A stretch of 64,000 bases of DNA from an uncultured Methanosarcinales archaeon (GTDB lineage: Archaea > Nanobdellota > Nanobdellia > Woesearchaeales > CAYSVS01): positions 7,604 through 71,603 of the forward strand of contig CAYSVS010000002.1 in assembly GCA_964434475.1 (NCBI GenBank), read 5' to 3'. The first letter of the stretch is position 1. Each line of letters begins with the position of its first letter. Below the pieces are notes generated by a model. That model had not been told where the DNA came from. It made no database searches and was given only the letters and a program-made list of their open reading frames with translations. Positions 47,241-64,000 of this stretch are shown in pieces. The position numbers were made by a program, and so were the translations under genes.

Positions 47241-47741
47241 ATGAAAAAGAGGTTAAGCGATAAAATAAATAAAAATAACATAGATCTTGATAGTTTAAAT
47301 TCTGAAAATATAATAAAATTGCTTCTTGAGAAGATTTCTGAAACAAAAAAAAGTAGAGGGTTGATAGAAAAAAGAAAAAATATCCCTTTGTCTGTATTCA
47401 AAAATAAAAAATTAGGCATCCTTGAAGCCATAGTTAAATATCTAAAAGAAGAATGCAAGTACAAATACAGCAAGATAGCAAAAATACTTAACAGAGACGA
47501 TAGGACAATATGGACGACATACAATAATGCGAAGAAAAGAAGCAAAAAACCATTGTATATAAAAGAAAGCGATTTTGATATCCCTGTTGAAATATTTTCT
47601 AAGAAAAAATACAGCGCATTAGAAAGCATGTCTGTTTACTTAAGAGACAAGTTTGAACTAGGATATACAGATATCGGAAAAATGCTTGGAAGAAATCCTA
47701 AAACAATCTGGACAACATACAAAAGAGCAAAGAAAAAATGA
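47241..47741 (+). CDS. small basic protein with tandem duplicated HTH (sigma-70 region-4/LuxR-like) modules
   Basis: Two internal repeats carry similar cores: IAKILNRDDRTIWTTYNNAKKRSKK and IGKMLGRNPKTIWTTYKRAKKK. The stop codon overlaps the start of the giant gene (ATGA at 47738-47741). Confidence 0.6.
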   Translation: MKKRLSDKINKNNIDLDSLNSENIIKLLLEKISETKKSRGLIEKRKNIPLSVFKNKKLGILEAIVKYLKEECKYKYSKIAKILNRDDRTIWTTYNNAKKRSKKPLYIKESDFDIPVEIFSKKKYSALESMSVYLRDKFELGYTDIGKMLGRNPKTIWTTYKRAKKK

Positions 47742-50700
47742 ATGAAAAGCTGATGGAAGGACTGAGCATAATTGTTTTGCTAGTTGTCAGTTTAGTATTA
47801 GGATTAAGCGTCAATTATGAAGATAACATAACAGGATTCAGTATTGCAAACTTTGAAAACACATATATGGCGAATGATTCGATAAACATCAATACAGATT
47901 TTAAATTTAATTGCTTTGACATGAACAATACAAAGATATTGGTTGAATTCAACAACAATACAGAGATATACCATATTGAAGAGTTAGAGCACAGTGCAGT
48001 TTATGATAAAACATATGTATTGAACATAAAGGTTAAGTTGGATAATCCTGAACAGATAGGAGAGTATCTGCTAAAGATAAAAGCTACTAGCGACAATGAA
48101 ACGCACAATCTTGAAAAGAAGATACTCATAATGAATAAGACCAATCTTATAGAGATAGAAAAAGAAGCAAGCAATTCTACAGATATCGAAACTAATGAAA
48201 CAAATGTTGTAGAAATAAATGAAACAGAAAAGAAAACAGATATTGAAAATGTCATAAACGAAACACAAATATCAAATCAAACAGAAGCACATAATGATTT
48301 GGCAACAGATGATACAATGCATCAGGATAATAATGAAACAGGAAATATTACAATAAGGATTAACCAAAGCCAAACAAACACAGAAGGAAATGAGCATATG
48401 GATGATGCGTTTAATGAAACAAACATCACAAAGAATATTAAACAAACGCAAAAATATGAAACATTCACATTACAGAGCAAGGAAGGTAAAGACATAGGGG
48501 TTTTTGAGATAAGTGCAAAAGATTCGAAGTATAACTTAAAGATATATGAAGTCGCGAAAAATTCAACAATTCAAGCAGAAGCTACAATAAAGGGGATGAA
48601 AGACATACCTATAGTAAAGACGAAAATAGGCAGAATAAATGAAAAGCACATAAAAACAAAAGTGTTTGCTATAGAGCATATAAAGATACAGGAAGCTGAA
48701 ATAATTCTTCCTAAGACAGGATATGTAGATACAATCTATAGATGCAACAATTTTGATATCGATATCTTCGAATGTGAGGAGGAATGGCAAAAGACAAATA
48801 TAGAGTTCGAAGATCTTGAAAATAGAATAAAATTTACTGTTGATCATTTCAGCGCTTATGCTGGCGGAATAGGTTATGATTCAAGACTGTACATATACGA
48901 TGATACTGACTTTGAGATAAAACAGGTTGAAGAGAATATTTTGTTCTATGCCAACTATACCAACTCAAGTAACCAGACAATATTAGATTCTAATTGCACA
49001 ATAGAATTCAACATTACAGGCAACTGGGAAGGATTATCTAATATGCATTATAATGAGTCTTTGGAATTATGGTTTTTTAACAGAAGCTTTAACGCGTCAG
49101 GAGAAAATCAGTTCAATGTAAGCTGCACTTCCAGTTATGATAATTTAAGTGCGATAGATAGCATCACTATCTACAATGACCATTCAGGACCATATTGGAC
49201 AGAGAATAAGACAAACTTCGAAGGAGTTTCGACATATGAAAAAGATAAAGAGTATATGTTCAATGTTACGTGGAATGATGCAAATGATATAAATGAAGTA
49301 ATTATAGAACATGATTTCAACAGCAGCGTGCACAACTATTCTGTAAATAACATAGGAAATGAATACTATTACACATATACAGGATTAAAGACAGGAACAT
49401 ATAATTGGAAAGAGTATGCATATGACATATTAGGTAATCTTAACTCAACTGATGAATGGCAGTTTGAAATAGTAAAAGCCGAACCTGTGTTGAATTTAAC
49501 TTTGAACAGAATACAAGGAAATGTTTTGGTTAATGAAAATCAAAACTTAAACATTAATGCTTATTGTCAAGAGCCGCATAATGAATATGTGGAATTGTAT
49601 CTTAATGATAGTTTGATAAACAAAGGAACAGGAATATTAAGCAACACAACATCATTTGCAAACGCAGGATTGCATAATTCAACAATAAGGTATCTTGGCA
49701 ATGAAAATTATACTTCAGCAAATATAACATATAATATAAGTGTGAATTCTCAGCCATACATTGATCCGGCAGTACCTAATGTTTCAATATACAGAGATTA
49801 TGGAGATTATGAAATCAATCTTACACATTATGAAAATGATCTTGAAGATTCAGCAGAAAATCTCAGTTGGAGCATAGGGTACATAAACAACAGCTTATTA
49901 CAATACATATTTAATGAGGATGTATTGACGCTGACAACTGTTTCAGCAGCTCATGGAGTAGATAAGCTGGAATTAATATTGACAGACAGCAATGGATTAA
50001 ATGATACGCAGAATATAACTGTATTTATACCTTCAATAGAGCTGCATTCAGAGATAGGAGAATTGTTCATAATAGTTAATAATACGAATTCAACCAGTAT
50101 AATATTGAATGTTACTGATTATTATGCTGATGTTAATTTAACTGTAAACAACAGCAAATGCTCATTAGACAATTATAGTCTAGTAAATTTCATAGGAAAA
50201 AAAGACATAAACTTATCATGTAACTTCAACTACAGCCAAAACATAAGCGAGTATGTATTGATAGATACAAACAAAAGCAACAACCTGACAATAAAGATAA
50301 CTCCTGTTGAACCAAGGTTTAATCTTGAACAGATAAGCGGATACAATATAGTTTCAGGAGGAAGCTTTGATAATTCAATTATGTTGAATGTTTCCTATGT
50401 TTTTGCATTAGATGTAAACAATACAATAGATTGTCCAAATAATTGGGGATGTAATGTTAGTCCAGAGCATTATGCTAAACTAGAGATAGGAAATTATGGA
50501 ATCAATTATTCAATCATAGTGCCCGATGATGAATCTGCAGGAAATTATAGGATAAATTACAGCACATATGACCAATACGGAAGAAAAGAAGATAATTTAT
50601 TTTATGTCAATGTTTCGCAAACACCATTCATCTTTGTTGAAAAGAATAATTTAAGCGCTTATGTTGATATCTGCGAAGATATAGAATATAATATCTATTT

Positions 50701-53700
50701 TGAGAACAATGATCTTGTTAACCTAGACAACATAACAATAATAGATTATCTACCTAGTGATCTTGAGTTTAATTCGTGGAGTACGGAAAACAACAGAACT
50801 ATTGTCGATATGTACAATACAAACTCAAGGATAGTATGGAACAAGAGCAGCATGGAGATAGGAGAAAATATAAGCATAAGCTTGAACTTAACAGCCAACT
50901 GCAGTGCTTATGGTTATAATATCAACAAGGCAAACATAACATATTATTGGAATACTACATCAGGAGCAAGAAGGAATAAAACAACAGAAATCGAAGCACA
51001 CAGAGTTTATGTCAATAAACCAAAGATTGAGCTAGAGATTGTTCCAGATCAAACATTGAAAAATCTCAATCAAACAATAACATGGACATTGAGAATAAGA
51101 AACACAGGAAATGCAACAGCTTACAACATAAACATAAGCTATCTTACAGAGCAAGGTTTTGAATATATAAGTTTCTCGGATATGAGCAACATAAGCAACA
51201 GTAAACCAGGATATGGAGTTGACAATAATCATTCTATACTGTGGATTGCAAACATAACTAAAGGAGATGAATGGACAGCAGAAGTATATGCAAATCCTAA
51301 GTACTGCGATGAAAATTTATTGGATTCTAACTTAAGCGTAAAAGATATCTGCGGATGTGATGAGTTTGATAAACATCTTGAAAGCAATATTAGTTTAAGA
51401 AAAATAATAATTAACAAGACAACAAAGAAAACCGAGTTAGGAATTGGTGAACTTAACACATACACAATCGAAGCACTGGTTTGCGGCGAATATAAAAATT
51501 TGACAATAACAGATAGTTTTCCCAATCTTTTGAATTTTACTAAGAATGATAGTTATGTTGATGATAATGATATAAACATAACAACAATAAAAACAGACAG
51601 AAACTTCAGATGGACACTAAAAAATCACACAGGAAACATGAAGAGCCTTGAAAAATATGTTCACATTAGACTAAACATAAGCCAATACCCTAATAATCTA
51701 TCAAATGACAATGACGAGATAACCAACAATGCAACACTATTGTACTACAATTCTTCAGAGGATGAATCTGATAAATTCTATGAAACAGGAACAAGCGCAG
51801 GAGAAACAAGCATAAGCCAATCTACTATTACAGTATATGAGCCAGATGTACAAATAAGTGTTGAGACTTTGAAAGATACATGGAACATAAGCGATGAACT
51901 GCATGTGAATATTACATTAGTAAATATAGGAAACAATGATGCTTATAATCTGACTATCAACAGCTCGTATGTTGATGGTTTGGAACTGATAAATTCGAGC
52001 TATGAGATGGATTATAATGATACGGAGTTGTTTAGTTGGAAGATAGGCAAACTTGAACAAGCGCAGCAGTTCAGCATAATAGTGAATTATCTAGTCAATG
52101 AAACTTACAAAGATGCAAGAAGAGTGTTAGCTGATGATTATTTAGGAATAGATGCAGATATTGAATACTACAGTTATTACCTCGATAATGAACATAATGC
52201 TGTTCCAAGAGAATATTATGATCAAGACAATAAGCAGATAAAAATAGACAGAGCATATCTTAATTTTGATACTGACAAAATAGTTGCAGCGATAGGAGAA
52301 AAGATAACATATGACATAACAGCAGACTTCAGCAAAGTATATGCTAATGATGCACATATAATAAATAAGATTCCTTTTGGAACAGAATTTATCAGATATA
52401 CTAACTCAAGCTATATGGATCTGACTGTTGATATGAACAGATTGATATTCAATCTTACTAACATTACGGAAAGGAAAAAGATAAATCTAAGCATAGAAGT
52501 TTATGTTAATTCTTCTGCATACGACGGACAAAACTTGATAAATTATGTTAACTTAACATATCAAAACAGCACAGATGATGAGTTTGTCATTCAACATAGT
52601 TCTACTGTAACAGTAAGAGAACCATTCATAGACATAATAAAAGAATTGATGAGCAGCCAAGAAATAAAGATAGGAGATGTTGTTGAATACAATATTACAA
52701 TAATCAATAATGGACTATATGATGGATATAATGTTACTATGCAAGAGAACATATCTGACGGACTGATACTTAATTCATCTTCTCCTGCTTATGATTCTAA
52801 AAACGGAAACATATTAGTATGGCATTACAGCAAATTCCAAAAACAGACAACCAAGAACATATTGCTTAATCTTACAGTCAACAGGACATACAAAAGTGGC
52901 GAGTATGTTAGTGCAAATGATGTTTTCAATAATCATGTTGATATAAATTATTATGGCTTCAATTCAACAATAGCAGAAGAGTATAATGCAACAGTAAATG
53001 CGTATTATAATGAAACATATTCTGATAACAAGGTAGAACTGATAAAACCTCGAATATATGTATTTAGAGACAAGACAAACGCAACAATAGGAGAAAATGT
53101 CAGCTATAATATAGTATTGAATTTCACAGAAACAGCAGGCAATTATGTTGAGCTTAATAACACGCTTGATCAAGGGTTTGTGCTGATAAATGCAACGAAT
53201 AATCCTAGCTATAACGGAAGAAATCTGCTGTGGAGTTTTGGCAATATATCCTTACAAAGAATAGAGATAAACTACTCAGTATATATCAATGATACTTCTA
53301 TAAACGAAAAAGGAAGGAATGTTGAACAAAAGTTTGACTTGAAATATGAAAGCCATAATCTTACTAAACATTATCTAAACAATAAAACATACATTGAGAT
53401 AAAAGAGCCTAATGTTACAATATTTAAACAGCTTATGAGCGATCCTAATTCAGGGATAGGAGAAGTTATAGAATACAATATAACCATAGTCAATCGAGGA
53501 AATTCGGATGCGTTCAATGTTACAATAAAAGATAGGATTCCTAATGGAACATATTACAATACATCTAATCCTGGCTTTGTTAAGGAAGAAAATAAATATC
53601 TGCTTTGGAACTATTCAAGACTAGATGCAGGAGATTATAGGACAATCTTATTGAATTTCACTATAAACAACAGCTATGATGACAGAAGCATTGTCAATTC

Positions 53701-56700
53701 AGGAGACATATTCGGCAACAGCGTAAATATGACATACTATAGCTACAATTATACTCTTGCAAATCCTTACAAAGGAAAAACAAGAAAGTATTACATAGGA
53801 ACCAACAGCGATGCTTTTGTCATAATATCGCCTGAATTCGGAAAAATTACTTCGCCATTGAAGACTATTGCAGGAATAGGAGAGAATATCAACTATGTCA
53901 TAAATGTAAATTATACTGCAGGTGCTAACAATGTTACAGTCAATGACCTATTGCCCGATAATATTGTTCTTGTAAATTATAGCTTTGAAGATAATGCGAC
54001 AACAGATAACAAAACAATACAATGGAACTTTGGAAGAGTTGGAGAGATAAGGCAGGATAATATCAACATAAGAACTTATGTGAATGATTCTAGCTCAGTA
54101 TATGATGGAATAGAGATAGAAAAGAATTATGCTAACCTTACATATATAGGAGAAAACAATACAGTGTACAATCTTTCGTCTTTAAGCAATACAGTTACAG
54201 TGAGAGAACCTAATGTAAACTTGAGCATAGTGTTGATAGGAAACAAGCATCTGAAAATAAAGGATAATGTTGAGTATAAAATATCAATAGAGAATATAGG
54301 GAACTATGCTGCATATAATGTTACTTTACATGACAAGATTCCAGACGGATTATTTTACAATAGTTCAAACATAGGATATAAGGCATTTGAAGATAATATA
54401 TTAGAGTACAATTATCCAAAAATATCTGCAGGAACAGTTAAAAATATTTTGCTGAACTTAACCATAAATGGAACATATGCAGACGGAAATTTAGTGAGTT
54501 CAAACGACAGCATATATGACTCTATCAATACAACATACTATAGCTTTAACCAGACAAAAGCAAAAGAATACGGAGGCATAGTGAGAGAATATTTTAACTC
54601 AAGCTATTCTGAAAACATAAGCTTGATTGCACCTACAATAGAGAAATATGTTAATTCAAGTTTTGGTTATGAAGGAGATATTATCAAATATGTCATAGAA
54701 GTTAACGCAAGCAATGGGTTAAGAAATTTTACTGTTGAAGATAATCTGCCAGAAGGTTTGACTTATGTAAATGATACCAGGCACATTTATTCTAGTTTGG
54801 ATGGAAACAATATAACATGGGAATTTGGAGATGTTCCTAATCAGTTTACATATATCAACATCACTGTAAACATAAGCTCAAGTCCAGATCAAGGAGATGG
54901 AGTATATATAGACAATAATACTGCAACGATATATTACATGAACTCTAACAAGAAAGTATTCAGTCTAAATTCAACAAGCAGCAGGACAGAGATGAATGTG
55001 CCTCCTGAACAGATCAATCTGACATCTCCAGTAGATGAGCATAATACAACTAATAGACAGCCAAGCTTTGACTGGGGTGATTCAAATGATTTAGACATAG
55101 TAGATTCAATAAAGTACTATCTTGAAATATCAAATTCAAGCTGTTTTGAATATTTGTATGCTGATCAGAATACGACACTATCAGAATATACATTGACAGG
55201 AGTGCAGAGTTTAAGTGATGGACAATATTATTGGAGAGTCAAGATATGCGATGATTCTTTAAAGCTAAACAACTGCAGTTATTCTTATGAAAACTTCACA
55301 TTTAGAGTTGATAATGGAGCTCCTGAAATAACAATACATGAGCCTGATGAAGATGAAGTTGTAGCTTGGTTAGTTTACTTTATAGCTAACGCCACAGATA
55401 ATCTGACACATACAGATAAAGTATGGTACACAATAAGCAACAATACATTGATGCAGCAAGGTTTCCTAAACATGTCAAACAGTTGGGAAGCAGTATGGAA
55501 TACTGCAAATATTGTAAGTAATTCAACTGACATAAACCATTTCAATTTTACAGTTTATGCTAATGACACATTGGACAATACAGCAAATAAGACAATTGCA
55601 TTTGTTGTTGATAACAGAAACCCAGGATTACAAATAATATCTCCAGATAAGACCTACCATAATGCAAATATTGGTTTGGATATAAGGCTGAGCAATGAAC
55701 ATCTTAACAAAAGCTGGTTTGAGATAAATTATAGCAGCAGAGCATTGCTGATTTCAAATAATACAGAGATAGGGAAACCTAGGTTCAATTGGACACAACA
55801 AATAGATCTTAGCATAGAGGATAATTACACATTAACTGTTTATGCAGAGGATGAAGTAGGGAATAACATAACTAAGCAAACATGGTTTGTGTATGATACA
55901 AGTGCACCAAACCATCAATTATTTAGAAGTCCTATTCCTGCCTATACTACAGATAATATAACATTATCTGTAATAGTCAATGACAATTATAATATTGATA
56001 CTGTTTACATAACACATAATGCATCTGGAACATATGAAAATCATAGTGTGCAGATCAGCGGAAACAATTATTCAAGAATAATATACCATAATGAAACAAG
56101 CAACCAAGAAAACATAGGATGGTATACTTGGATAAACGACAGCGCCAAGAATGTTAACATATCAAGCATCGAGGCTATAAAAATAGAGAACAGAGTACCT
56201 GTATTCAGTCCTTTGTTAAGCAATAAGATAGCGCAGGAGGATCAAGAGTTTAGATACAATATAAATGCAACAGATTATGATTATGAAGACAGCATAAACT
56301 ATACGACCAATGCAACAGAGTTTATGATAAATAAAAATACAGGATTAATTAATTGGACTCCGACAAATGAGGATGTGGGAGTATTGGTCGTCAATGTTAC
56401 AATATGCGATAATAGCACTGCAGCTGCATATTGTAATTCAAGTGTGTTTAACATTACTGTGAATAATACCAACGATGCGCCTTATGCAGTAAGTTTGGGA
56501 CTGCCTGAAAACAATTCAATTACAAATGATCCTAATCCTTATTTCAACTGGAGCGTTGCAAATGACGTTGATGCAGGAGATAGTTTAACCTATTATTTGA
56601 TTTTAGACAATAACAGTGATTTTAGTTCTGTTGAGTTGATACAAAACACAACAAATAATTTGTATGGATTGACAAATTCACAGAACCTATCAAACGATCA

Positions 56701-59700
56701 ATGGTATTGGCGTGTAAGAACTTGTGACGACAGCTATTCTACGAATAATTGCACATATTCTGCAGAAAACTTTACTTTTACAATAGATGAAAGTACAAGC
56801 ATAGTTACACTGACTGAGCCCATAGATGGCCATAATGCCACCAAAAATAATATGACATTTATCTGCAATGTTACAGATAATTATGGACTAAAGAACATAA
56901 CTTTATTTGCAAATATCACTGGATGGAACAAGTTTGGATCAACTAATATATCTGGTAAGAAAAATTCTTCTGTATTTGTTGTTACAAACATATCAGATGG
57001 ATCATATGTATGGAACTGCCTTGCTTATGATATGGCGGGCAACTATAATTGGGCGCTGAGCAACAATACATTTAGGATAGATACTAATGCGCCTAATATA
57101 ACATACTATTATCCTTCAAATGGCGCAAGTTTAGGATATACAACAACAAAAGTTGAAGCAGAGATAAGGACTGATGAATTGTCTGTATGCTGGTATAATT
57201 TTACAAATAAAAGTTTTGTATATTCACAAGGAAATAATTTCAATGACAGCTATAGATACAATCACAGCCTAAATATTAGCATTAGCCAAGGACAAAGCTA
57301 CAGCATCTATTATCTATGCAATGATAGTTACGGCAACCTAAACAATGAGTCTTATGTGCATAGTTTCTCTGTACAGACGCAGCCAGATGATCCAAGCGGA
57401 GGAGGGGAAGAAGAACCGCCTGCTGAACCAGAATGCACAGCAAGCTGGGAGTGCACAGCTTGGAGTCCTGCAATATGTCCTCCAAGCGGAATACAGACAA
57501 GATCTTGTACATGTTCATGTCCAGGAGGAACTGGGTGTACAGGAGATTATAGTACATCAAGAACTTGCGTATACACGCCAACATGCGATGATGGAATAAA
57601 GAATCAGGATGAAACAGATGTAGATTGCGGAGGAAGCTGTCTGGGATGCAGCACAGGAAAGCAGTGCAGCCAGCAGACAGATTGTTTATCAGGGTTATGC
57701 GTAAGTAATGTATGCAGAGAAGTAGGATGCTTCAACAATATCAAAGATGGAGATGAAACAGATATAGATTGCGGTGGAAGCTGCAGTAAATGCGCGGTGA
57801 ATAAAGCATGTTCAAGCAAAAGCGACTGTTTGTCAAATTTATGTATCAATAATATATGTAAAAATCCTTCTTGCACAGACAGCTTAAAAAACCAGGATGA
57901 AACTGATATAGATTGTGGAGGAAATATTTGTTCAGGATGTGCAGTAGACAAGAACTGCAATGCTAATTCAGACTGCCAAAGCAATTATTGCATAGGAGGA
58001 AAATGCAAGATAGCTTCGTGTTCAGATGGTTTGATGAATCAGGATGAGACAGATGTAGACTGCGGAGGAAGCATATGCGGAAAGTGCAGCATAGGCAAAG
58101 AATGCCTGATAGATCCTGATTGTATCAATAACAACTGCGTTTTAGGACAATGTGTTGAAGTAAGCTGTGATGATGGAATACAAAATGGAGATGAAACAGA
58201 TGTAGATTGCGGAGGAGTATGTGGAAAGTGCAGAATAGGAAGTAGCTGTGCTTTGGATAGCGATTGCGAGAATAATAATTGCTTATCAAACGTATGTGCT
58301 GCAGAGAATTGCGATGACAATATAAAGAACGGAGATGAAACAGATGTAGATTGCGGAGGAAGCTGTCCTAGATGCGATACAGGAAAATCTTGTTCTGTTA
58401 ATTCTGATTGCTCCAGCAACAGCTGCATAGACAACATATGCGGAGCTCCAAACTGTGAAGATAATTCCAAGAATCAGGATGAGACAGATGTAGACTGTGG
58501 AGGAAGCTGCTATGCTTGCGAGGATGGCAAGCAATGTTCTGTAAATTCAGATTGTGCTAGCTTGTTCTGTAAAGAAAATGTTTGCAGACAAGCTTCATGC
58601 ACAGACACTATAATTAACCAGGACGAAACAGATGTAGATTGCGGAGGACCTTGTCAAGGTTGTACTGCAGGAAAGAATTGTATGGTTGATAGCGACTGTA
58701 TAAGCAAATATTGCGTCGCAGGAATGTGCGAAACAGCAAGCTGCACTGACGGTGTGCTCAACGGAGATGAAGAAGGCATAGACTGCGGAGGAAGCTGTCC
58801 AGCGTGTGCTAGCTGTGATGATGGGATCAAGAACGGAGATGAAAAAGGAATAGATTGCGGAGGAAGCTGCCCAGCGTGCTTCTTGGAATGTAGCGATGGA
58901 ACACAGGCAGGAAAATGCTCTGTTGAAAAGCCAAAATATTGTACATTGGATGAGGCTTTGGTGTTTGATTGCGAAAATTGCGGATGTCCTAATACAGGAG
59001 ATGTTTGTCAAGCTGATGGAAAATGCAGAGGAATAGGTAGCTGTTCAGACAGAATACAGAACCAAGGCGAAACAGGAGTGGATTGCGGCGGACCTTGTAA
59101 AGCGTGTGAAGCTACTTGTTTTGATGGATTAAAAAATCAAGGCGAAACAGGAGTAGATTGCGGAGGACCTTGCGAACCTTGCGCTAAAGAGCCTTTGCTT
59201 GAAAAACCAGGGCAATTTGAATTTGATGAAATACAAAGCTATGAATTTATGTTATATGAAAATGATATGCAAGAGTTTGAGATAGACAATATTAAACATA
59301 CAGTGCATGTATCAAAAGTTTATCTGGATAGTGCTGATCTAATAATAAGTTCTGACCCTATAAAGGTTAATGTTAAACTTGGAAAAGAAAGTTATGTAGA
59401 TATTGACGGAGATAATATTTATGATATTAGATTATTAATAAAAGATATAGCAGACAAAGGAATAAGCCTAAAGATAACTGTGCTTGAAGAAAGGATAACT
59501 GCTGCACAAAGAATAAGGCAGTTGTTGGGTCTTGAGGAGAGAGAAAGTTCCATTATACCTCAGGACATAAACATAGATAATATGCCTTGTCTCAAGGATC
59601 CTAAATCCAGCCAAAACAAGATTTCTGTTTTTGGTTCTGATTTTAAGTTTGATACACCTATAGGTTATGATGTCCTGATTGATGGTTTCAATATAATGTG

Positions 59701-62700
59701 CAATAATGGCGCAACAAATTTGACACTGACAATACCTAAGAATTACGCAGATATTTTCGCCTTGGATAAAAACGGAAATAGGATAAAATTGGCAAGCACT
59801 GGCTTGAAATGCGGAGAAGAGTTTGAGGAATTTGCAAAAGATGAAATGTTTGTAAGGGAGTATGAAGATTTTGAAGTTGCAGGAAATATTGATGAAAACA
59901 ATAAAAATATCAATCATGAATATTATGATTTTGAATTCATTACAGATGATAAATTTAAGGTTGTTTTGAAAAAACCAAAAGATCCAGTTTTAGAGCCTAA
60001 AAATAATCTTTTGAAGATAAGCGGAAAAGCCATTGCATTGCATATAGATAAAAAAATAGTATCTGGAAATCTAAAGATAGCCTTGCCTTTGGTAAAAGAT
60101 GAAAAGATAGAAGAAGGAAGCTATAATGTTTATGTTATGGTTCCTGGTCAGCAATGGAAGTTGTTGGAAAGTGATGAATATGAAAAGATAATAAGTTCTA
60201 GATTAAATAACCTTAGCAGTTACATAAACAGAAATAATGAGATTGTTTTGGCTGTAATAGGTAAGATATGCGCTAACTGTAAGTACAGCACACTAAAAAA
60301 AGCGTATGATCCTGGCAATACAAGAGATGCATTGCTGATGATACATGGATTAGGAAGCTCGCCAAAAACATTTGAGAATGTGCTTAAGGATATAAGGATG
60401 ACTAACCAGCCATGGCAGGCTTGGACTTACGGATATCCTACAGAAAAGAGCGTTAGTAAAAATGCGATTGAGCTTGCACACCATCTTGAAGCAAATGCAG
60501 ATGAATTTGATTATATGTATATTGCAGCGCACAGCATGGGCGGACTAGTAGTAAGAGAAGCGTTGTATTATAGCTATCTTGTAAATAAGGAAAAACCAGG
60601 AACATTCAAGTATTTGGATAAGATCAAGAAAGTAATACTTATTAGTGTTCCGAATAAAGGGAGCCCTGGCGCAGAGTTCTTATTAGGATTATCTCAATAC
60701 CTGACAAACGACAAATCAGACACAGCAATAGTGAATCTGGATAGCAAAGGCGTGCAAGATCTTATCAATGGTACAGAGACACCTATGGTGTCTGGAATAA
60801 AGTATTATGTTATTGCTGGAACAAAAAGCTATGAATTCGGAAAAAGCATATTAAGGGTTGAGTTGTTTGAACAAAACGTAACAAACGACGGACTTGTTTC
60901 TGTAGATAGTGCACAAAAAGTAGGGGGGGCTGTACTTGATGATGAGTGTGAAAACTATTGGGAAATATATGAGACACATACAGAAATATTAGATAATCCT
61001 ATATCACGAAGATTAGTAGAAAAGATAGTAGCTGAAGAGATAGCTAAAGGAATAAAAAACACTGCAATATTAGGAAATATAGTCTATTATGATCTGCCTA
61101 TCAAATGCGGAGAGGATTATGTTGTTCTTGGCAAGAAAGTTAATCCAAATAAACAGTATGATCCAACAGGATGCTTATGCGGAAATGGATACTGCGGCGA
61201 AGGAGAGGATAAAGAGAATTGCGCAATAGACTGCGATACTTTATTGAATAAAGAGAATATATGTAAAAGTTCGCCATTTGCAATATTATTGCTTATTGTT
61301 GTTATGCTGATAATAGGAGCCCCTTATGTTTATGAAAAATATATCAGACGCTTGAGATTTGCAACAGTTTTGAAAAACAGGATGGTATGCTGCTTTGTGT
61401 GGACAGCATATATTATTGCTGCTGTCAATCTTATGCTGTTCTTGTATTATAAGCAGTTTTGTATCAGCTATTATAGTGTGGGGCTGGGTAAGAATATGCT
61501 AATAGCTTTAGGCATGTTGATTGTTGTATTGTTAATATATGATTGGTTCATATATAAGTTTAGGAAAGAAGAGAAGAAGCTTGAGAAAGAGTTCAAGTTT
61601 ATGAGTAATATTGCAAGATTGTTTAGACTCCATGTTAAGTTGATGTTATGGATAGTTTGGATATTGATAGTTATAGGTTATGCTGCAGGAATGATGGTTG
61701 TGTTTAACATCAGTGAAGAGTTATTTGCAAATCTGTTGTTCAATGTTATATTGGTGATATTGACGTTTGTAGCTGTAAATACCTTGAACTTCTTTGTTTA
61801 CGAAGAAAGGAAGATAGTTACAGGATTGGAGAAGAAAGAGAAAGAGATAGAGAAATTGGAAAGATTTGAAGAAAAAGAGATCAAGAAAGAGAAGAAGAAG
61901 ATATGGGAATTGGAGTTTAAGGAATTGTTTAAGTCCAAAAAAGAAGTCAAGAGATTGAAATCTTTAGAAAAAGCAAGGAAAGCCAGGTTTAAAAAACTGA
62001 AGAAAAAAGAAAGGAGAGAGAAGATAAGAATATTCAAGATAAGGGTTAGGAAGGTCAAGGACAGGCTTTTGCATAAATTAGGTTTAAAATATACTATAAA
62101 GGAAAAGGAAAGGCTGTTTAAGAAAGAAAGATTAAAGAATTTAGAAAAAGCTAGAAGGGTTAAGAAAAGGAAAGCGAAAATAAAAAATATGAACAAATAC
62201 CTCAACAAACTAAAAAACAAGATTAAAAGGTATTTCAAGAAAGAATTGAAAGAGGTTAATGAAGATTACAAAGAATGGTATGAAAAAGAACTGCGTAAAA
62301 TTGAAAGAGAGAAAATCAGAAGGATGGTAAGAGCAAAGAAATGGTATAAATTCTTAAGAAAGATTGGATTGTACCATACCAAAAAAGATAAGCAGATGTT
62401 GTTAGATAAGAAGAGATTGAAAAGTTTAGAAAAAGCAAGAAGAGTTAAGAAATTTAATTCTATAATTAAAAAATTGCATAAAAGAAAGCTAAAACCTCTA
62501 GAGAAAGCAAGAAAAGCCAGGAAGAGGAAAGCAGAGCTTAATAGGATTAAAAGAAAAATCAATAAGTTGAAACAAAAAATAATCAAAAGTTTTGGAAAAA
62601 TAAAGATAAAGCCAAGCTGGAAAACAAAAGAAAGGCTGGCTAAATTAGGATTATACAGCAAAAGAAAGATTATTGAACATAATGAAAGAGTGGAAAGAGC

Positions 62701-62803
62701 AAAGATTGTGAAACTCATGAAGAAAGATAAGAAAAAAAGGAAAAGAGAAGCTGATAAAGAATATGATGATCTAAAGTATGGAGAGCAGACAGATTGGGAG
62801 TAA
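47738..62803 (+). CDS. giant (5,021 aa) multidomain cell-surface protein with embedded lipase-like hydrolase domain and C-terminal 5-TM anchor
   Basis: A single uninterrupted 15,066-nt ORF. An N-terminal hydrophobic signal or anchor (LSIIVLLVVSLVLGLSV) is followed by an Asn-rich region dense in N-x-S/T sequons. Next come DUF11-like β-sandwich repeats, FN3-like and cadherin-like domains, 8 full and about 5 half Cys-rich repeats, an α/β-hydrolase domain (IHGLGSS, AHSMGG), five C-terminal TM helices and a K/R-rich repeat tail. Confidence 0.85.
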   Translation: MNEKLMEGLSIIVLLVVSLVLGLSVNYEDNITGFSIANFENTYMANDSININTDFKFNCFDMNNTKILVEFNNNTEIYHIEELEHSAVYDKTYVLNIKVKLDNPEQIGEYLLKIKATSDNETHNLEKKILIMNKTNLIEIEKEASNSTDIETNETNVVEINETEKKTDIENVINETQISNQTEAHNDLATDDTMHQDNNETGNITIRINQSQTNTEGNEHMDDAFNETNITKNIKQTQKYETFTLQSKEGKDIGVFEISAKDSKYNLKIYEVAKNSTIQAEATIKGMKDIPIVKTKIGRINEKHIKTKVFAIEHIKIQEAEIILPKTGYVDTIYRCNNFDIDIFECEEEWQKTNIEFEDLENRIKFTVDHFSAYAGGIGYDSRLYIYDDTDFEIKQVEENILFYANYTNSSNQTILDSNCTIEFNITGNWEGLSNMHYNESLELWFFNRSFNASGENQFNVSCTSSYDNLSAIDSITIYNDHSGPYWTENKTNFEGVSTYEKDKEYMFNVTWNDANDINEVIIEHDFNSSVHNYSVNNIGNEYYYTYTGLKTGTYNWKEYAYDILGNLNSTDEWQFEIVKAEPVLNLTLNRIQGNVLVNENQNLNINAYCQEPHNEYVELYLNDSLINKGTGILSNTTSFANAGLHNSTIRYLGNENYTSANITYNISVNSQPYIDPAVPNVSIYRDYGDYEINLTHYENDLEDSAENLSWSIGYINNSLLQYIFNEDVLTLTTVSAAHGVDKLELILTDSNGLNDTQNITVFIPSIELHSEIGELFIIVNNTNSTSIILNVTDYYADVNLTVNNSKCSLDNYSLVNFIGKKDINLSCNFNYSQNISEYVLIDTNKSNNLTIKITPVEPRFNLEQISGYNIVSGGSFDNSIMLNVSYVFALDVNNTIDCPNNWGCNVSPEHYAKLEIGNYGINYSIIVPDDESAGNYRINYSTYDQYGRKEDNLFYVNVSQTPFIFVEKNNLSAYVDICEDIEYNIYFENNDLVNLDNITIIDYLPSDLEFNSWSTENNRTIVDMYNTNSRIVWNKSSMEIGENISISLNLTANCSAYGYNINKANITYYWNTTSGARRNKTTEIEAHRVYVNKPKIELEIVPDQTLKNLNQTITWTLRIRNTGNATAYNINISYLTEQGFEYISFSDMSNISNSKPGYGVDNNHSILWIANITKGDEWTAEVYANPKYCDENLLDSNLSVKDICGCDEFDKHLESNISLRKIIINKTTKKTELGIGELNTYTIEALVCGEYKNLTITDSFPNLLNFTKNDSYVDDNDINITTIKTDRNFRWTLKNHTGNMKSLEKYVHIRLNISQYPNNLSNDNDEITNNATLLYYNSSEDESDKFYETGTSAGETSISQSTITVYEPDVQISVETLKDTWNISDELHVNITLVNIGNNDAYNLTINSSYVDGLELINSSYEMDYNDTELFSWKIGKLEQAQQFSIIVNYLVNETYKDARRVLADDYLGIDADIEYYSYYLDNEHNAVPREYYDQDNKQIKIDRAYLNFDTDKIVAAIGEKITYDITADFSKVYANDAHIINKIPFGTEFIRYTNSSYMDLTVDMNRLIFNLTNITERKKINLSIEVYVNSSAYDGQNLINYVNLTYQNSTDDEFVIQHSSTVTVREPFIDIIKELMSSQEIKIGDVVEYNITIINNGLYDGYNVTMQENISDGLILNSSSPAYDSKNGNILVWHYSKFQKQTTKNILLNLTVNRTYKSGEYVSANDVFNNHVDINYYGFNSTIAEEYNATVNAYYNETYSDNKVELIKPRIYVFRDKTNATIGENVSYNIVLNFTETAGNYVELNNTLDQGFVLINATNNPSYNGRNLLWSFGNISLQRIEINYSVYINDTSINEKGRNVEQKFDLKYESHNLTKHYLNNKTYIEIKEPNVTIFKQLMSDPNSGIGEVIEYNITIVNRGNSDAFNVTIKDRIPNGTYYNTSNPGFVKEENKYLLWNYSRLDAGDYRTILLNFTINNSYDDRSIVNSGDIFGNSVNMTYYSYNYTLANPYKGKTRKYYIGTNSDAFVIISPEFGKITSPLKTIAGIGENINYVINVNYTAGANNVTVNDLLPDNIVLVNYSFEDNATTDNKTIQWNFGRVGEIRQDNINIRTYVNDSSSVYDGIEIEKNYANLTYIGENNTVYNLSSLSNTVTVREPNVNLSIVLIGNKHLKIKDNVEYKISIENIGNYAAYNVTLHDKIPDGLFYNSSNIGYKAFEDNILEYNYPKISAGTVKNILLNLTINGTYADGNLVSSNDSIYDSINTTYYSFNQTKAKEYGGIVREYFNSSYSENISLIAPTIEKYVNSSFGYEGDIIKYVIEVNASNGLRNFTVEDNLPEGLTYVNDTRHIYSSLDGNNITWEFGDVPNQFTYINITVNISSSPDQGDGVYIDNNTATIYYMNSNKKVFSLNSTSSRTEMNVPPEQINLTSPVDEHNTTNRQPSFDWGDSNDLDIVDSIKYYLEISNSSCFEYLYADQNTTLSEYTLTGVQSLSDGQYYWRVKICDDSLKLNNCSYSYENFTFRVDNGAPEITIHEPDEDEVVAWLVYFIANATDNLTHTDKVWYTISNNTLMQQGFLNMSNSWEAVWNTANIVSNSTDINHFNFTVYANDTLDNTANKTIAFVVDNRNPGLQIISPDKTYHNANIGLDIRLSNEHLNKSWFEINYSSRALLISNNTEIGKPRFNWTQQIDLSIEDNYTLTVYAEDEVGNNITKQTWFVYDTSAPNHQLFRSPIPAYTTDNITLSVIVNDNYNIDTVYITHNASGTYENHSVQISGNNYSRIIYHNETSNQENIGWYTWINDSAKNVNISSIEAIKIENRVPVFSPLLSNKIAQEDQEFRYNINATDYDYEDSINYTTNATEFMINKNTGLINWTPTNEDVGVLVVNVTICDNSTAAAYCNSSVFNITVNNTNDAPYAVSLGLPENNSITNDPNPYFNWSVANDVDAGDSLTYYLILDNNSDFSSVELIQNTTNNLYGLTNSQNLSNDQWYWRVRTCDDSYSTNNCTYSAENFTFTIDESTSIVTLTEPIDGHNATKNNMTFICNVTDNYGLKNITLFANITGWNKFGSTNISGKKNSSVFVVTNISDGSYVWNCLAYDMAGNYNWALSNNTFRIDTNAPNITYYYPSNGASLGYTTTKVEAEIRTDELSVCWYNFTNKSFVYSQGNNFNDSYRYNHSLNISISQGQSYSIYYLCNDSYGNLNNESYVHSFSVQTQPDDPSGGGEEEPPAEPECTASWECTAWSPAICPPSGIQTRSCTCSCPGGTGCTGDYSTSRTCVYTPTCDDGIKNQDETDVDCGGSCLGCSTGKQCSQQTDCLSGLCVSNVCREVGCFNNIKDGDETDIDCGGSCSKCAVNKACSSKSDCLSNLCINNICKNPSCTDSLKNQDETDIDCGGNICSGCAVDKNCNANSDCQSNYCIGGKCKIASCSDGLMNQDETDVDCGGSICGKCSIGKECLIDPDCINNNCVLGQCVEVSCDDGIQNGDETDVDCGGVCGKCRIGSSCALDSDCENNNCLSNVCAAENCDDNIKNGDETDVDCGGSCPRCDTGKSCSVNSDCSSNSCIDNICGAPNCEDNSKNQDETDVDCGGSCYACEDGKQCSVNSDCASLFCKENVCRQASCTDTIINQDETDVDCGGPCQGCTAGKNCMVDSDCISKYCVAGMCETASCTDGVLNGDEEGIDCGGSCPACASCDDGIKNGDEKGIDCGGSCPACFLECSDGTQAGKCSVEKPKYCTLDEALVFDCENCGCPNTGDVCQADGKCRGIGSCSDRIQNQGETGVDCGGPCKACEATCFDGLKNQGETGVDCGGPCEPCAKEPLLEKPGQFEFDEIQSYEFMLYENDMQEFEIDNIKHTVHVSKVYLDSADLIISSDPIKVNVKLGKESYVDIDGDNIYDIRLLIKDIADKGISLKITVLEERITAAQRIRQLLGLEERESSIIPQDINIDNMPCLKDPKSSQNKISVFGSDFKFDTPIGYDVLIDGFNIMCNNGATNLTLTIPKNYADIFALDKNGNRIKLASTGLKCGEEFEEFAKDEMFVREYEDFEVAGNIDENNKNINHEYYDFEFITDDKFKVVLKKPKDPVLEPKNNLLKISGKAIALHIDKKIVSGNLKIALPLVKDEKIEEGSYNVYVMVPGQQWKLLESDEYEKIISSRLNNLSSYINRNNEIVLAVIGKICANCKYSTLKKAYDPGNTRDALLMIHGLGSSPKTFENVLKDIRMTNQPWQAWTYGYPTEKSVSKNAIELAHHLEANADEFDYMYIAAHSMGGLVVREALYYSYLVNKEKPGTFKYLDKIKKVILISVPNKGSPGAEFLLGLSQYLTNDKSDTAIVNLDSKGVQDLINGTETPMVSGIKYYVIAGTKSYEFGKSILRVELFEQNVTNDGLVSVDSAQKVGGAVLDDECENYWEIYETHTEILDNPISRRLVEKIVAEEIAKGIKNTAILGNIVYYDLPIKCGEDYVVLGKKVNPNKQYDPTGCLCGNGYCGEGEDKENCAIDCDTLLNKENICKSSPFAILLLIVVMLIIGAPYVYEKYIRRLRFATVLKNRMVCCFVWTAYIIAAVNLMLFLYYKQFCISYYSVGLGKNMLIALGMLIVVLLIYDWFIYKFRKEEKKLEKEFKFMSNIARLFRLHVKLMLWIVWILIVIGYAAGMMVVFNISEELFANLLFNVILVILTFVAVNTLNFFVYEERKIVTGLEKKEKEIEKLERFEEKEIKKEKKKIWELEFKELFKSKKEVKRLKSLEKARKARFKKLKKKERREKIRIFKIRVRKVKDRLLHKLGLKYTIKEKERLFKKERLKNLEKARRVKKRKAKIKNMNKYLNKLKNKIKRYFKKELKEVNEDYKEWYEKELRKIEREKIRRMVRAKKWYKFLRKIGLYHTKKDKQMLLDKKRLKSLEKARRVKKFNSIIKKLHKRKLKPLEKARKARKRKAELNRIKRKINKLKQKIIKSFGKIKIKPSWKTKERLAKLGLYSKRKIIEHNERVERAKIVKLMKKDKKKRKREADKEYDDLKYGEQTDWE
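57580..59200 (+). repeat. in-frame tandem array of ~48-aa (144-nt) cysteine-rich repeats within the giant gene
   Basis: The repeat consensus is C-x-D-x-I/L-K-N-G/Q-D-E-T-D-V/I-D-C-G-G-S-C-x-x-C-x-x-G-K-x-C-x-x-x-S-D-C-x-S-N-x-C-x-x-x-x-C, with 8 Cys per full unit. There are eight full units and about five 24-aa half units. The periodicity is visible at the DNA level. Confidence 0.85.
60300..61000 (+). other. lipase-class α/β-hydrolase domain inside the giant protein (aa ~4190-4420)
   Basis: It has an oxyanion-hole HG box (LLMIHGLGSS) and a nucleophile elbow AHSMGG (GxSxG). A downstream candidate catalytic Asp (TNDGLVSVDS) and His (YETHTEIL) follow. The order and spacing resemble Bacillus LipA-type (Lipase_2/PGAP1-like) enzymes. 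Confidence 0.75.
61250..62803 (+). other. C-terminal 5-TM membrane anchor and cytoplasmic K/R/E-rich repeat tail of the giant protein
   Basis: Five hydrophobic helices are present: FAILLLIVVMLIIGAPYVY, MVCCFVWTAYIIAAVNLMLFLYY, MLIALGMLIVVLLIYDWFIY, LMLWIVWILIVIGYAAGMMVVF and LLFNVILVILTFVAVNTLNFFVY. A roughly 330-aa tail follows, with reiterated KLGL-Y…RLK-S/N-LEKARRVKK units. Confidence 0.7.
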
Positions 62804-62857
62804 AAGAAAATATTTATATAATAAATAATTTATTAATAATGAATAAAGGGGTTAACT

Positions 62858-64000
62858 GTGAAAAAATTGGTGAGTTTAGGGATTGCATTATTGTTTCTGT
62901 GTAGTTTAGCTTACGCAGATGAAGTATGGCATAGTTCTCAATATATAAGATTAAATGGAGATCCTTCTCATAACTTATCTACTTGGAGAGATTCAGGAGA
63001 TTATACTAAGATAAATGCAGCTTATCTGTGGAGTTTGGGAAATGTTCCATCAGGAGCAGGAACATTGCCAGCAGTAAATATTCCTAATCTAGATGCTGAT
63101 AAAATAACTACAGGATCAATAGATAATTCTGTATTCAGCGCATATTCAGATTTAACTGCAGAAGGATATCTTGATAATGATGCTAATGGTGATCTGCTTA
63201 CAAGAACACAATCAGATTCTAGATTCGTAAATGAAGGGCAAGCAGATTCGATAACTTCTGGAATGGTTAATTTCAATTACGCTGCTTCAGGTTCAGAAGG
63301 AGGGGCTGCTACAGGATTAGCTTGCTCAGGAACTTGTGTATCTTCAGGAGAGGTTGATTTTAATTATGCAGCTGGCGCAACCAAAGGCGGCGCTGCTACT
63401 TCGGGCGATTCGGCAACAGCATTCTTTTCAACCGGAACATTAGAGGATGAGAGGATAGCATCAACGATCGCAAGAGATTCTGAAGTCACAGCAGCAATCG
63501 CAACTAAAGATGAGTGCTCAGAAATAAGTGGATGCGTTGTTGGCGCGATAACTGACGATACATCAGTTCCAAAAAATCATATGGCAAATTCAGGAACATT
63601 AGGATTTGATTGGGCTGATAGTGAGGTTGTTAATGATTTGACAATTACAAGTTCAGGCAGTGTTGATGCTGGTGCGATTAAGTCTGGCACTGTGGCTGAT
63701 GCGAGGATAGCATCAACGATTGCAAGAGATTCTGAAGTCACAGCAGCAATCGCAACTAAAGACCAATGTTCAGAAATAAGCGGATGCGTTGTTGGCGCGA
63801 TAACAGATGATACATCAGTTCCAAAAAATCATATGACAAATTCAGGAACATTAGGATTTGATTGGGCTGATAGTGAGGTTGCTGATGCTTTGACAATTAC
63901 AAGTTCAGGCAGTGTTGATGCTGGTGCGATTAAGTCTGGCACTATGGCTGATGATAGATTATCTTTTACTTTACAAGATGCTGTAAATGATGGCGGTTGT
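62858..64000 (+). CDS. secreted repeat protein (GTG start; 3' partial, continues beyond window)
   Basis: The frame opens after a TGA at 62840. GTG at 62858 is preceded by an AAAGGGG Shine-Dalgarno sequence 6 nt upstream. A signal peptide is present (VKKLVSLGIALLFLCSLAYA). The product is Gly/Ser/Ala/Thr-rich and contains near-identical 84-aa (252-nt) tandem repeats. It is absent from the ORF track because it lacks an ATG start. Confidence 0.6.
   Translation, partial: MKKLVSLGIALLFLCSLAYADEVWHSSQYIRLNGDPSHNLSTWRDSGDYTKINAAYLWSLGNVPSGAGTLPAVNIPNLDADKITTGSIDNSVFSAYSDLTAEGYLDNDANGDLLTRTQSDSRFVNEGQADSITSGMVNFNYAASGSEGGAATGLACSGTCVSSGEVDFNYAAGATKGGAATSGDSATAFFSTGTLEDERIASTIARDSEVTAAIATKDECSEISGCVVGAITDDTSVPKNHMANSGTLGFDWADSEVVNDLTITSSGSVDAGAIKSGTVADARIASTIARDSEVTAAIATKDQCSEISGCVVGAITDDTSVPKNHMTNSGTLGFDWADSEVADALTITSSGSVDAGAIKSGTMADDRLSFTLQDAVNDGGC
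63452..64000 (+). repeat. 252-nt near-identical tandem repeat (>=2.2 copies, runs off window)
   Basis: The unit starting at 63452 (gaggatagcatcaacgatcgcaagagattctgaagtcac…) recurs at 63704 with only a handful of substitutions. The encoded unit is ARIASTIARDSEVTAAIATKD(E/Q)CSEISGCVVGAITDDTSVPKNHM.NSGTLGFDWADSEV…SGSVDAGAIKSGT.AD. Confidence 0.85.

Follow-up and report, generated by a model that had tools for sequence, protein, structure and literature searches.

A cysteine-rich tandem repeat array as a candidate extracellular spacer in a giant membrane-anchored surface protein of an uncultured archaeon

A 64,000-nucleotide stretch of DNA from an uncultured archaeon (deposited as a Methanosarcinales archaeon, with a GTDB lineage in the Woesearchaeales; contig CAYSVS010000002.1, positions 7,604 to 71,603 of the forward strand), referred to here as the window, encodes a protein of 5,021 amino acids (aa) that carries an array of tandem cysteine-rich repeats at window positions 57386-59200. 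We propose, with moderate confidence, that this array serves a giant, membrane-anchored surface protein as an extracellular, disulfide-stapled, semi-rigid, and unglycosylated spacer or stalk of tunable length. The array is located in frame within a single uninterrupted open reading frame (ORF) on the plus strand (Table 1), which is far too long to have arisen by chance in DNA of 32-39% GC; the exact 5,021-aa protein is already recorded as a called gene on an NCBI contig.

Of the 605 aa that the array encodes, 96 are Cys, whereas elsewhere in the protein most 100-aa bins contain 0 to 3; the size of approximately 600 aa with about 100 Cys that an earlier sequence-only reading of this DNA had assigned to a disulfide-dense array thus agrees with the count. 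That reading had also described eight 48-aa units with 8 Cys each, and all eight were recovered here, with a length of 48-49 aa and exactly 8 Cys (C1 to C8) per unit. The units start at nt 57584, 57728, 57872, 58019, 58166, 58310, 58454, and 58598, with C1 at aa 3283, 3331, 3379, 3428, 3477, 3525, 3573, and 3621, respectively. Cys spacing is invariant across all eight units (i.e., 14, 4 or 5, 3, 6, 6, 5, and 5, followed by 5 to the next unit), with a constant gap of 4 residues between C8 and the next C1. Each unit consists of two 4-Cys modules, designated A (CxDGxxNGxETDVDCGGxCxxC) and B (xxGxxCxxxxDCxSxxCxxxxC). The array contains 12 DCGG motifs in total, eight in the full units and four in half-units of 24-25 aa that consist of module A only. 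Five half-units had been reported previously; we counted four, and a Cys-rich insert that parts these four half-units into two pairs (Table 1) probably accounts for the supposed fifth. The motif of this insert was absent from all other proteins and loci that were fetched.

A Cys-rich lead-in (ECTASWECTAWSPAICPPSG...CTCSCPGG; Cys span nt 57434-57568, 9 Cys) does precede the units, as had been stated, but it represents a module type of its own rather than a unit of the array. This lead-in module is reminiscent of thrombospondin type-1 repeats, with no Pfam match. Its W.C..WS..C motif is also present in four Woesearchaeota/Nanoarchaeota loci (L042, L061, L064, and L068) from the genome scan described below, and A modules follow directly after it in L042 and L064.

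The topology of the host protein places the array outside the cell and the C-terminal tail inside, given a hydrophobic N-terminal signal or anchor (aa 5-23, as identified by a Kyte-Doolittle scan), five C-terminal predicted transmembrane (TM) helices, and a K/R-rich tail. Upstream of the array (aa 1-3216), Pfam and NCBIfam identified DUF11 repeats, He_PIG, and Ig-like domains in an ectodomain that is rich in sequons. In these 3,216 aa, 221 NxS/T sequons were found, as compared to 73±7 in shuffled sequences (i.e., an approximately 3-fold enrichment), while the 605-aa array contains none where 6.1±2.2 would be expected, with only 0.12% of the shuffles reaching zero. This sequon distribution suggests a distal part that is heavily glycosylated and a spacer that is unglycosylated and disulfide-stabilised.

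Homology searches place the repeat in a large family. More than 6,800 proteins, among 8,000 scored candidates, matched the array at E<=1e-3; nearly all named matches were from Myxococcota, together with one unclassified bacterium and the rotifer Adineta ricciae. The best matches, from Polyangia, Sandaracinaceae, and Nannocystaceae, showed 40-50% identity over the whole array, which confirms the kinship with myxobacterial repeats that had been suspected from the sequence. When 1.84 billion cluster representatives were searched with a profile built from 93 unit sequences (A2), 16,744 matched at E<=1e-3, and 2,570 of these did so at E<=1e-30. A single protein could show as many as 39 matched stretches; in the window protein itself there were 12 (E=9e-120). 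Most carriers of the repeat belong to Myxococcota, and others come from Woesearchaeota, Nanoarchaeota, Altiarchaeota, Bacteroidota, Patescibacteria, and a rotifer. Among the top 120 matches, 628 of 642 full-length units carried 8 Cys, with a median of 10 units per protein. All eight units in the window fit both the family spacing (14, 4-5, 3, 6, 6, 5, 5) and the family signature outside the Cys, which is characterized by D or N at C1+2, N or D at C1+6, an invariant E at C1+9, the sequence D-C-G-G at C2, and a D directly ahead of C6. Alignment of 2,863 units showed 99-100% C in seven of the eight Cys columns and 84% in the C3 column, which has a variable register; conservation at the other positions reached 100% for E13, 99% for D17, 99% for G19, 94% for G20, 95% for D37, 88% for D6, and 75% for N10. 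The 8-Cys pattern is far beyond chance: of 2,634 distinct complete homologous units from other organisms, 2,575 (97.8%) retain every one of the 8 Cys. Module A alone forms tandem arrays in proteins from Bacteroidota and Altiarchaeota, which indicates that modules A and B are separable, and some of these arrays directly follow a signal-like segment at the N terminus; matches to B only were almost absent. Two proteins attributed to the bdelloid rotifer A. ricciae (P0053 and P0120) carry long arrays of the AB unit; these could represent horizontal acquisition or contamination.

For all its size, the repeat family is represented by no model in Pfam or NCBIfam, and it has no relative of solved structure. 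With the most permissive threshold (E<=10), Pfam gave no match for the array, single units, unit pairs, the lead-in, or the half-unit block, and NCBIfam gave none for the array or its parts, including TIGR02232 and TIGR04201, with the proviso that HMMER filters drop most matches above approximately 0.1, so that very weak matches may be lost. The Myxococcus cysteine-rich repeat (TIGR02232/PF13948, DUF4215), a family that had been put forward as a candidate, was thus not reported by either database for the array, single units, or unit pairs, and membership in it is not borne out. EGF-like, EGF-Ca, LDL-receptor class A, Notch LNR, thrombospondin (TSP) type 3, and TNFR CRD modules showed no Pfam match and were not among the matches of profile A2 in the PDB. 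In 14 homologs, including those with 28-39 repeats, Pfam matched flanking domains only; sub-threshold matches to Dumpy_DPY (E=0.002-0.055) in homologs were rejected as noise. A sequence search of the PDB with the whole array returned nsp7 alone, at E~0.6, which was taken as chance, and profile A2 found nothing below E=0.07 among all PDB sequences, with LEAP2 at 0.077 and a spider toxin at 0.25; a 50-sequence profile of module A (A3) had no match at E<=10. In the literature on the motif and on Cys-rich repeats in DPANN, Woesearchaeota, and myxobacteria, we found no description of the A+B repeat.

Sequence data alone yielded a testable disulfide map. In units that are short of exactly two Cys, just 3 of the 28 possible pairs were observed, namely loss of C5+C7 (11 units in 5 proteins), of C1+C3 (11 units in 3 proteins), and of C2+C4 (4 units in 2 proteins). 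This pairwise co-loss implies that C1 bonds with C3 and C2 with C4 in module A, and that C5 bonds with C7 in module B, which leaves C6-C8 by elimination; these disulfides presumably form in vivo. It also argues for pairwise disulfides and against either four-Cys metal sites or a cystine knot. The Cys-knot-like character that had been proposed for the repeat did not hold, as a 1-3/2-4 pairing within each 4-Cys module is no cystine knot; the pairing of an inhibitor cystine knot (ICK; 1-4, 2-5, 3-6) was not found, and Foldseek matches to ICK toxins had E>=2 over 21-32 columns. A myxobacterial protein with 31 units, encoded by a 1,671-aa ORF fragment in a deltaproteobacterial metagenome-assembled genome (MAG; locus L006, JACKFA010000003.1) shows recurrent variants that lack C5+C7 or C2+C4, and these paired-loss units represent natural "disulfide knock-outs" that may be used for studies on the fold.

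Confident AlphaFold2 models were obtained, with a pLDDT of 94.6 and a pTM of 0.72 for units 5-7 (50-row alignment) and with a pLDDT of 91.4 for unit 6 alone (93 rows). A pTM of 0.72 for an elongated chain of three units suggests a defined orientation between predicted units. In the DSSP assignment of the models, the SDC turn contains a short helix and a hairpin comes after it. Foldseek found no match below E=2 in the PDB, and the nearest neighbours by structure or sequence, all of them weak, were LEAP2, spider and cone-snail toxins, and colipase.

To locate further arrays, one genome per GTDB species was scanned with peptides from the window array as queries, and 69 loci were confirmed. About half of these loci were archaeal, a proportion that is biased by the origin of the query peptides from a low-GC archaeal protein; the archaeal loci include at least 17 from Candidatus Woesearchaeota as well as loci from Nanoarchaeota/Nanoarchaeia, Altiarchaeota, and several MAGs labelled "uncultured Methanosarcinales archaeon". 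Myxococcota, Bacteroidota, Patescibacteria, and a Geobacteraceae MAG accounted for the other loci. The array type, which the sequence-only reading had regarded as rare in archaea, is thus recurrent rather than rare in these archaeal lineages. Among the fetched loci, copy number ranged from 1 to 31 units, and database proteins showed as many as 39 matched stretches; archaeal loci contained 0-4 AB units and 0-11 A modules. In three Woesearchaeota/Nanoarchaeota loci (L008, L009, and L027), a Ser/Pro linker connects a sequon-rich ectodomain to four AB units, after which come one A module, a single TM helix, and then a charged tail, while L019 encodes two AB units and two A modules followed by a TM helix; in these four proteins, the predicted architecture makes the array a literal membrane-proximal stalk. 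Elsewhere, arrays are fused to unrelated globular domains, including fibrinogen_C, TSP_C, Phi_1, a purple acid phosphatase with GEVED and a type IX secretion system (T9SS) tail, and DUF6252, and one T9SS cargo protein carries 39 copies of module A. A signal of horizontal gene transfer from base composition was considered and rejected, as the small rise in GC over the array (0.37-0.39 versus 0.32) fits its Cys/Gly/Asp codon content.

The wide variation in copy number, the joining of arrays to globular domains of unrelated kinds, and the lack of sequons fit a structural, length-setting spacer. A spacer role is also suggested by the position of the array next to a TM helix in relatives and by a Pro/Ala linker that takes its place in the one homolog of the post-array region (P0244). 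In the mechanism that we propose, two overlapping disulfides would hold each module together (C1-C3 with C2-C4 in A; C5-C7 with C6-C8 in B), and the invariant Glu13, Asp17, and Asp37 would probably form a hydrogen-bond network or a cation site. With constant 4-residue linkers, the twelve modules would then make up a compact rod that is free of sequons, tunable in length, and probably resistant to proteases; this rod would keep the sequon-rich, DUF11/Ig-like, adhesin-type part (approximately 3,200 aa) away from the hydrolase-like module and the 5-TM anchor. The array may be rigid, and its invariant acidic residues may bind calcium or another cation; a structural rather than a ligand-binding role is what we infer for the array as a whole. 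The topology, the TM-adjacent arrays in archaeal relatives, and the pairwise Cys loss make the extracellular, disulfide-dense stalk that had been postulated from the sequence a plausible one.

A number of points weigh against this spacer role. PDB searches found no solved structure for any member of the repeat family. The window array is itself not membrane-proximal, since it is followed by approximately 690 aa of further ectodomain, and the argument from linker substitution is backed by one homolog. In addition, the archaeon may live under reducing conditions, in which extracellular disulfides would be harder to maintain. Finally, Glu13 and Asp17 are as invariant as the Cys and would also fit binding of a cation or ligand. 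The repeats might be ligand-binding or adhesive modules that, for example, bind host glycans or proteins in a cation-dependent manner, as LDL-A, EGF-Ca, and TSR modules do; we regard this as possible, although rather unlikely. Compatible with an adhesive function are the conservation of several non-Cys residues (E13, D17, D37, D6, and N10) to a degree like that of the Cys, with oxygen ligands that could make up a Ca2+ site, as well as the adhesin-like remainder of the protein (DUF11, He_PIG, and Ig domains) and the view, as put forward in the account of nanohaloarchaeal surface proteins cited below, that giant DPANN surface proteins contact hosts (PMC10266531). By contrast, no match to known binding modules was found in Pfam, NCBIfam, or the PDB, and the very variable copy number and the joining of arrays to unrelated catalytic as well as binding domains count against binding by the repeats, as do the Pro/Ala linker in P0244 and the location of the array directly beside a TM helix in relatives; the conserved acidic residues could be purely structural.

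Two further alternatives concern the nature of the array rather than its role. Coordination of metal by the Cys in place of disulfides (e.g., as Zn(Cys)4 with one site per 4-Cys module) seems improbable to us. Each 24-aa module does contain four Cys, DPANN archaea are often found in anoxic settings, and a 2026 survey of archaeal "dark" domains described small 8-Cys domains that may bind several metal ions (PMC13607799). However, Cys are lost strictly in pairs and never in fours, module B has no CxxC knuckle (with 5-4-4 residues between successive Cys), the array lies outside the cell, Myxococcota contain the family in abundance and a rotifer protein carries it as well, and the weak structural neighbours are disulfide-rich peptides. 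Even less credible, and in our view close to dismissible, is the explanation that the array represents recent tandem amplification or an artefact of assembling a repetitive region, such that its length would have no biological meaning. The periodic layout (144-147 nt) and the reiterated antisense PPQS[IT]SVS translations would be expected under this explanation, and the antisense ORFs from which recent unit duplication had previously been deduced do exist. The eight units, however, share only 42-63% aa identity and 49-69% DNA identity among themselves, and Tandem Repeats Finder detected no DNA repeat at 57-59 kb, although it did detect a repeat with 94% identity further downstream at 63446-63954. 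Over the C1-C8 core, similarity of each unit to units from unrelated organisms and other phyla (64-69%) is no lower than similarity to its best partner within the array (61-68%). Both recent duplication and gene conversion were therefore rejected. Because units that are this strongly diverged could not be collapsed or expanded by a short-read assembler, assembly collapse or expansion of the array is also unlikely. The antisense motif is the reverse-complement reading of (D)ETD[VI]DCGG, and it is reiterated because the conserved ETD[VI]DCGG is coded near-identically with the A/T-ending codons that this genome prefers. A spacer of disulfide-stapled modules remains the interpretation that we favour.

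The ectodomain that follows the array (Table 1) includes a core with similarity to alpha/beta-hydrolases (nt 60332-60985), which had weak matches to Pfam DUF7379 and DUF676 and to a putative lipase in the PDB (E=0.74). Hydrolase-like motifs in this core include HGLGSS (60344-60361), AHSMGG of the nucleophile-elbow type (60527-60544), NDGLVS (60884-60901), and ETHTE (60971-60985). A search of 5.8 billion proteins with the post-array region found a single homolog, P0244 (PF05057 and PF24096), which is 40% identical across 83% of the query and carries a Pro/Ala-rich linker and one small Cys motif in the place of the window array. A further Cys motif, CLCGNGYCGEGEDKENCAIDC, at nt 61172-61234 just before the first TM helix, conforms to the pattern CG[ND]GxC...E....C..DC, which is also present in P0244 and in the Woesearchaeota locus L045, where it is located directly upstream of an AB unit. 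The hydrolase-like core may represent a putative surface-tethered esterase or lipase on the giant adhesin of a putative symbiont.

Table 1. Features of the giant surface protein gene and its cysteine-rich array (window coordinates)
Feature	Position (nt)	Strand	Description
Host gene	47738..62803	+	Giant membrane-anchored surface protein; signal/anchor, ectodomain, Cys array, hydrolase-like module, 5 predicted TM helices, tail
Linker and lead-in module	57386..57583	+	Acidic/Pro linker DDPSGGGEEEPPAEPE and 9-Cys module W.C..WS..C...G.Q.R.C; no Pfam match
Eight tandem A+B units	57584..58741	+	aa 3283-3668; 48-49 aa and 8 Cys each
Two A-only modules	58742..58813, 58814..58888	+	aa 3669-3692, 3693-3717; CxDGxxNGDExGIDCGGSCPAC, 4 Cys each
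Cys-rich insert	58889..59041	+	CSDGTQAGKCSVEKPKYC...CENCGCPNTGDVCQADGKC; aa 3718-3768, 51 aa, 9 Cys; unrelated to the repeat
Two A-only modules	59042..59116, 59117..59191	+	aa 3769-3793, 3794-3818; CxDxxxNQGETGVDCGGPCxxC
Membrane-proximal extracellular region	59201..61270	+	aa 3822-4511; alpha/beta-hydrolase-like core; CGNGYCGEGEDKENCAIDC motif at 61172-61234
Five predicted TM helices	61277..61777	+	aa 4514-4680; Kyte-Doolittle scan
Lys/Arg/Glu-rich tail	61790..62800	+	337 aa; 29% K, 11% R, 12% E

The C-terminal tail is presumed to be cytoplasmic and contains reiterated KSLEKARKAR- and KNLEKARRVKK-like stretches, which suggests a coiled-coil or nucleic-acid-binding segment. Immediately upstream of the giant ORF, a gene at 47241-47741 encodes a 166-aa helix-turn-helix protein (matches to Sigma70_r4_2 and HTH_23) and ends 4 nt inside the giant ORF; this ATGA overlap suggests translational coupling or co-transcription of the two genes. 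The same gene pair is found on an independent Logan contig from run SRR7048224 (L001). Downstream, the next gene (62855-64000) has a secreted-looking product with no Pfam match and runs past the end of the window. A tandem repeat of 252 bp (84 aa) with 94% DNA identity is located within this gene, at 63446-63954, and, unlike the Cys array, represents a truly recent duplication. The window also codes for a Hef-type helicase-ERCC4 nuclease, the large subunit of a eukaryotic/archaeal primase, SecY, both subunits of phenylalanyl-tRNA synthetase (PheRS), the small subunit of replication factor C (RFC), an eRF1/Pelota-type factor, and Pta-AckA, a gene content that identifies the organism as an archaeon. 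Its low GC and the nearest archaeal relatives of the array suggest that it is probably of a DPANN/Woesearchaeota-like type. Scans of the window for tRNAs and against Rfam found no tRNA and no Rfam match.

Disulfide-rich tandem repeats are a familiar design for the stalks of surface proteins, and the view of archaeal cell surfaces is unchanged by our findings. The unnamed family does, however, represent an annotation blind spot that covers thousands of secreted proteins in Myxococcota, Bacteroidota, Patescibacteria, and DPANN archaea. Among DPANN-type archaea, sequon-rich, membrane-anchored giants that are candidates for host contact repeatedly carry the array as a predicted stalk, and the coupling of a stalk to a lipase-like module is the more intriguing lead with regard to symbiont biology. 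On a more speculative note, which we advance with considerable reservation, the A and A+B modules may constitute an uncurated family of Bacteria and Archaea (with a rotifer-attributed protein), possibly an unsolved mini-fold with a Glu/Asp cation site, that acts as a portable "ruler" for surface display and sets the reach of host contact in DPANN. If this were the case, the array described here would determine how a lipase-like hydrolase and a glycosylated adhesin region are placed with respect to the membrane of the symbiont, possibly for the harvesting of host lipids.

Comparison with characterized or described proteins places the array at several levels. At the level of a single module, the core of LEAP2 aligns with module B, with all four Cys in register (in the profile A2 search of the PDB, E=0.077), and a Foldseek superposition gave an rmsd of 0.6 A over 21 columns, with a non-significant E-value. 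The LEAP2 core consists of 1-3/2-4 disulfides, a beta-hairpin, and a 3-10 helix (PMC11722547), and both its pairing and its secondary structure match, respectively, the pairing deduced for module B and the DSSP assignment of our models. LEAP2 is, however, a free vertebrate peptide rather than a repeat, while ICK toxins form a three-disulfide knot that is unsupported here. At the level of the whole protein, the nanohaloarchaeal "SPEARE" proteins have been described as giants of 8,880 and 9,409 aa that carry a Sec signal and a membrane anchor and whose ectodomains are mostly Ig-like, and they are thought to mediate host contact (PMC10266531). The window protein resembles these giants in general layout; SPEARE proteins were described with a VirB4/TraG-like ATPase domain, and the portions of the published description that are used here mention no Cys-repeat array (PMC10266531).

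The array itself is shared by the Woesearchaeota/Nanoarchaeota proteins encoded at L008, L009, L027, and L019, which are likewise archaeal and low in GC. Like the window protein, they have a sequon-rich ectodomain, A-only modules after the AB units, and a TM anchor with a charged cytoplasmic tail. They differ in having 2-4 AB units and an array that adjoins a single TM helix, whereas the window protein has 8 AB units and 4 A modules, a 690-aa hydrolase-like module, and 5 TM helices. Secreted proteins of Myxococcota, for example P0001 (a "fibrinogen-like YCDxxxxGGGW domain-containing protein" from Polyangia) and P0017 (Sandaracinaceae), contain the same 8-Cys unit with the same spacing and the same E13, D17, GG, and D37, but they comprise 650-950 aa with one C-terminal globular domain (fibrinogen_C, TSP_C, or Phi_1) and are not TM-anchored giants of 5,000 aa. 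The A-only arrays of Bacteroidota (in proteins of approximately 200-280 aa and in the large T9SS cargo protein P0255) and of Altiarchaeota, as exemplified by P0124, P0130, P0137, P0255, and P0184, are built from the same 24-aa, 4-Cys module as the half-units in the window; these arrays have no B module and are located between an N terminus with a signal or lipobox-like sequence and a globular domain. The closest functional parallel is provided by TraA of Myxococcus xanthus, a surface receptor in which a Cys-rich tandem region is located between a distal recognition domain and a membrane-sorting tag; these tandem repeats have been proposed to form a rigid stalk (PMC3325183). The TraA repeat (TIGR04201) has three invariant and two marginally conserved Cys (PMC3325183), as opposed to the 8 invariant Cys found here, and thus belongs to another family, consistent with the lack of a TIGR04201 match at E<=10. 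By analogy with this system, the array in the window protein most likely works in the manner of the TraA repeat stalk.

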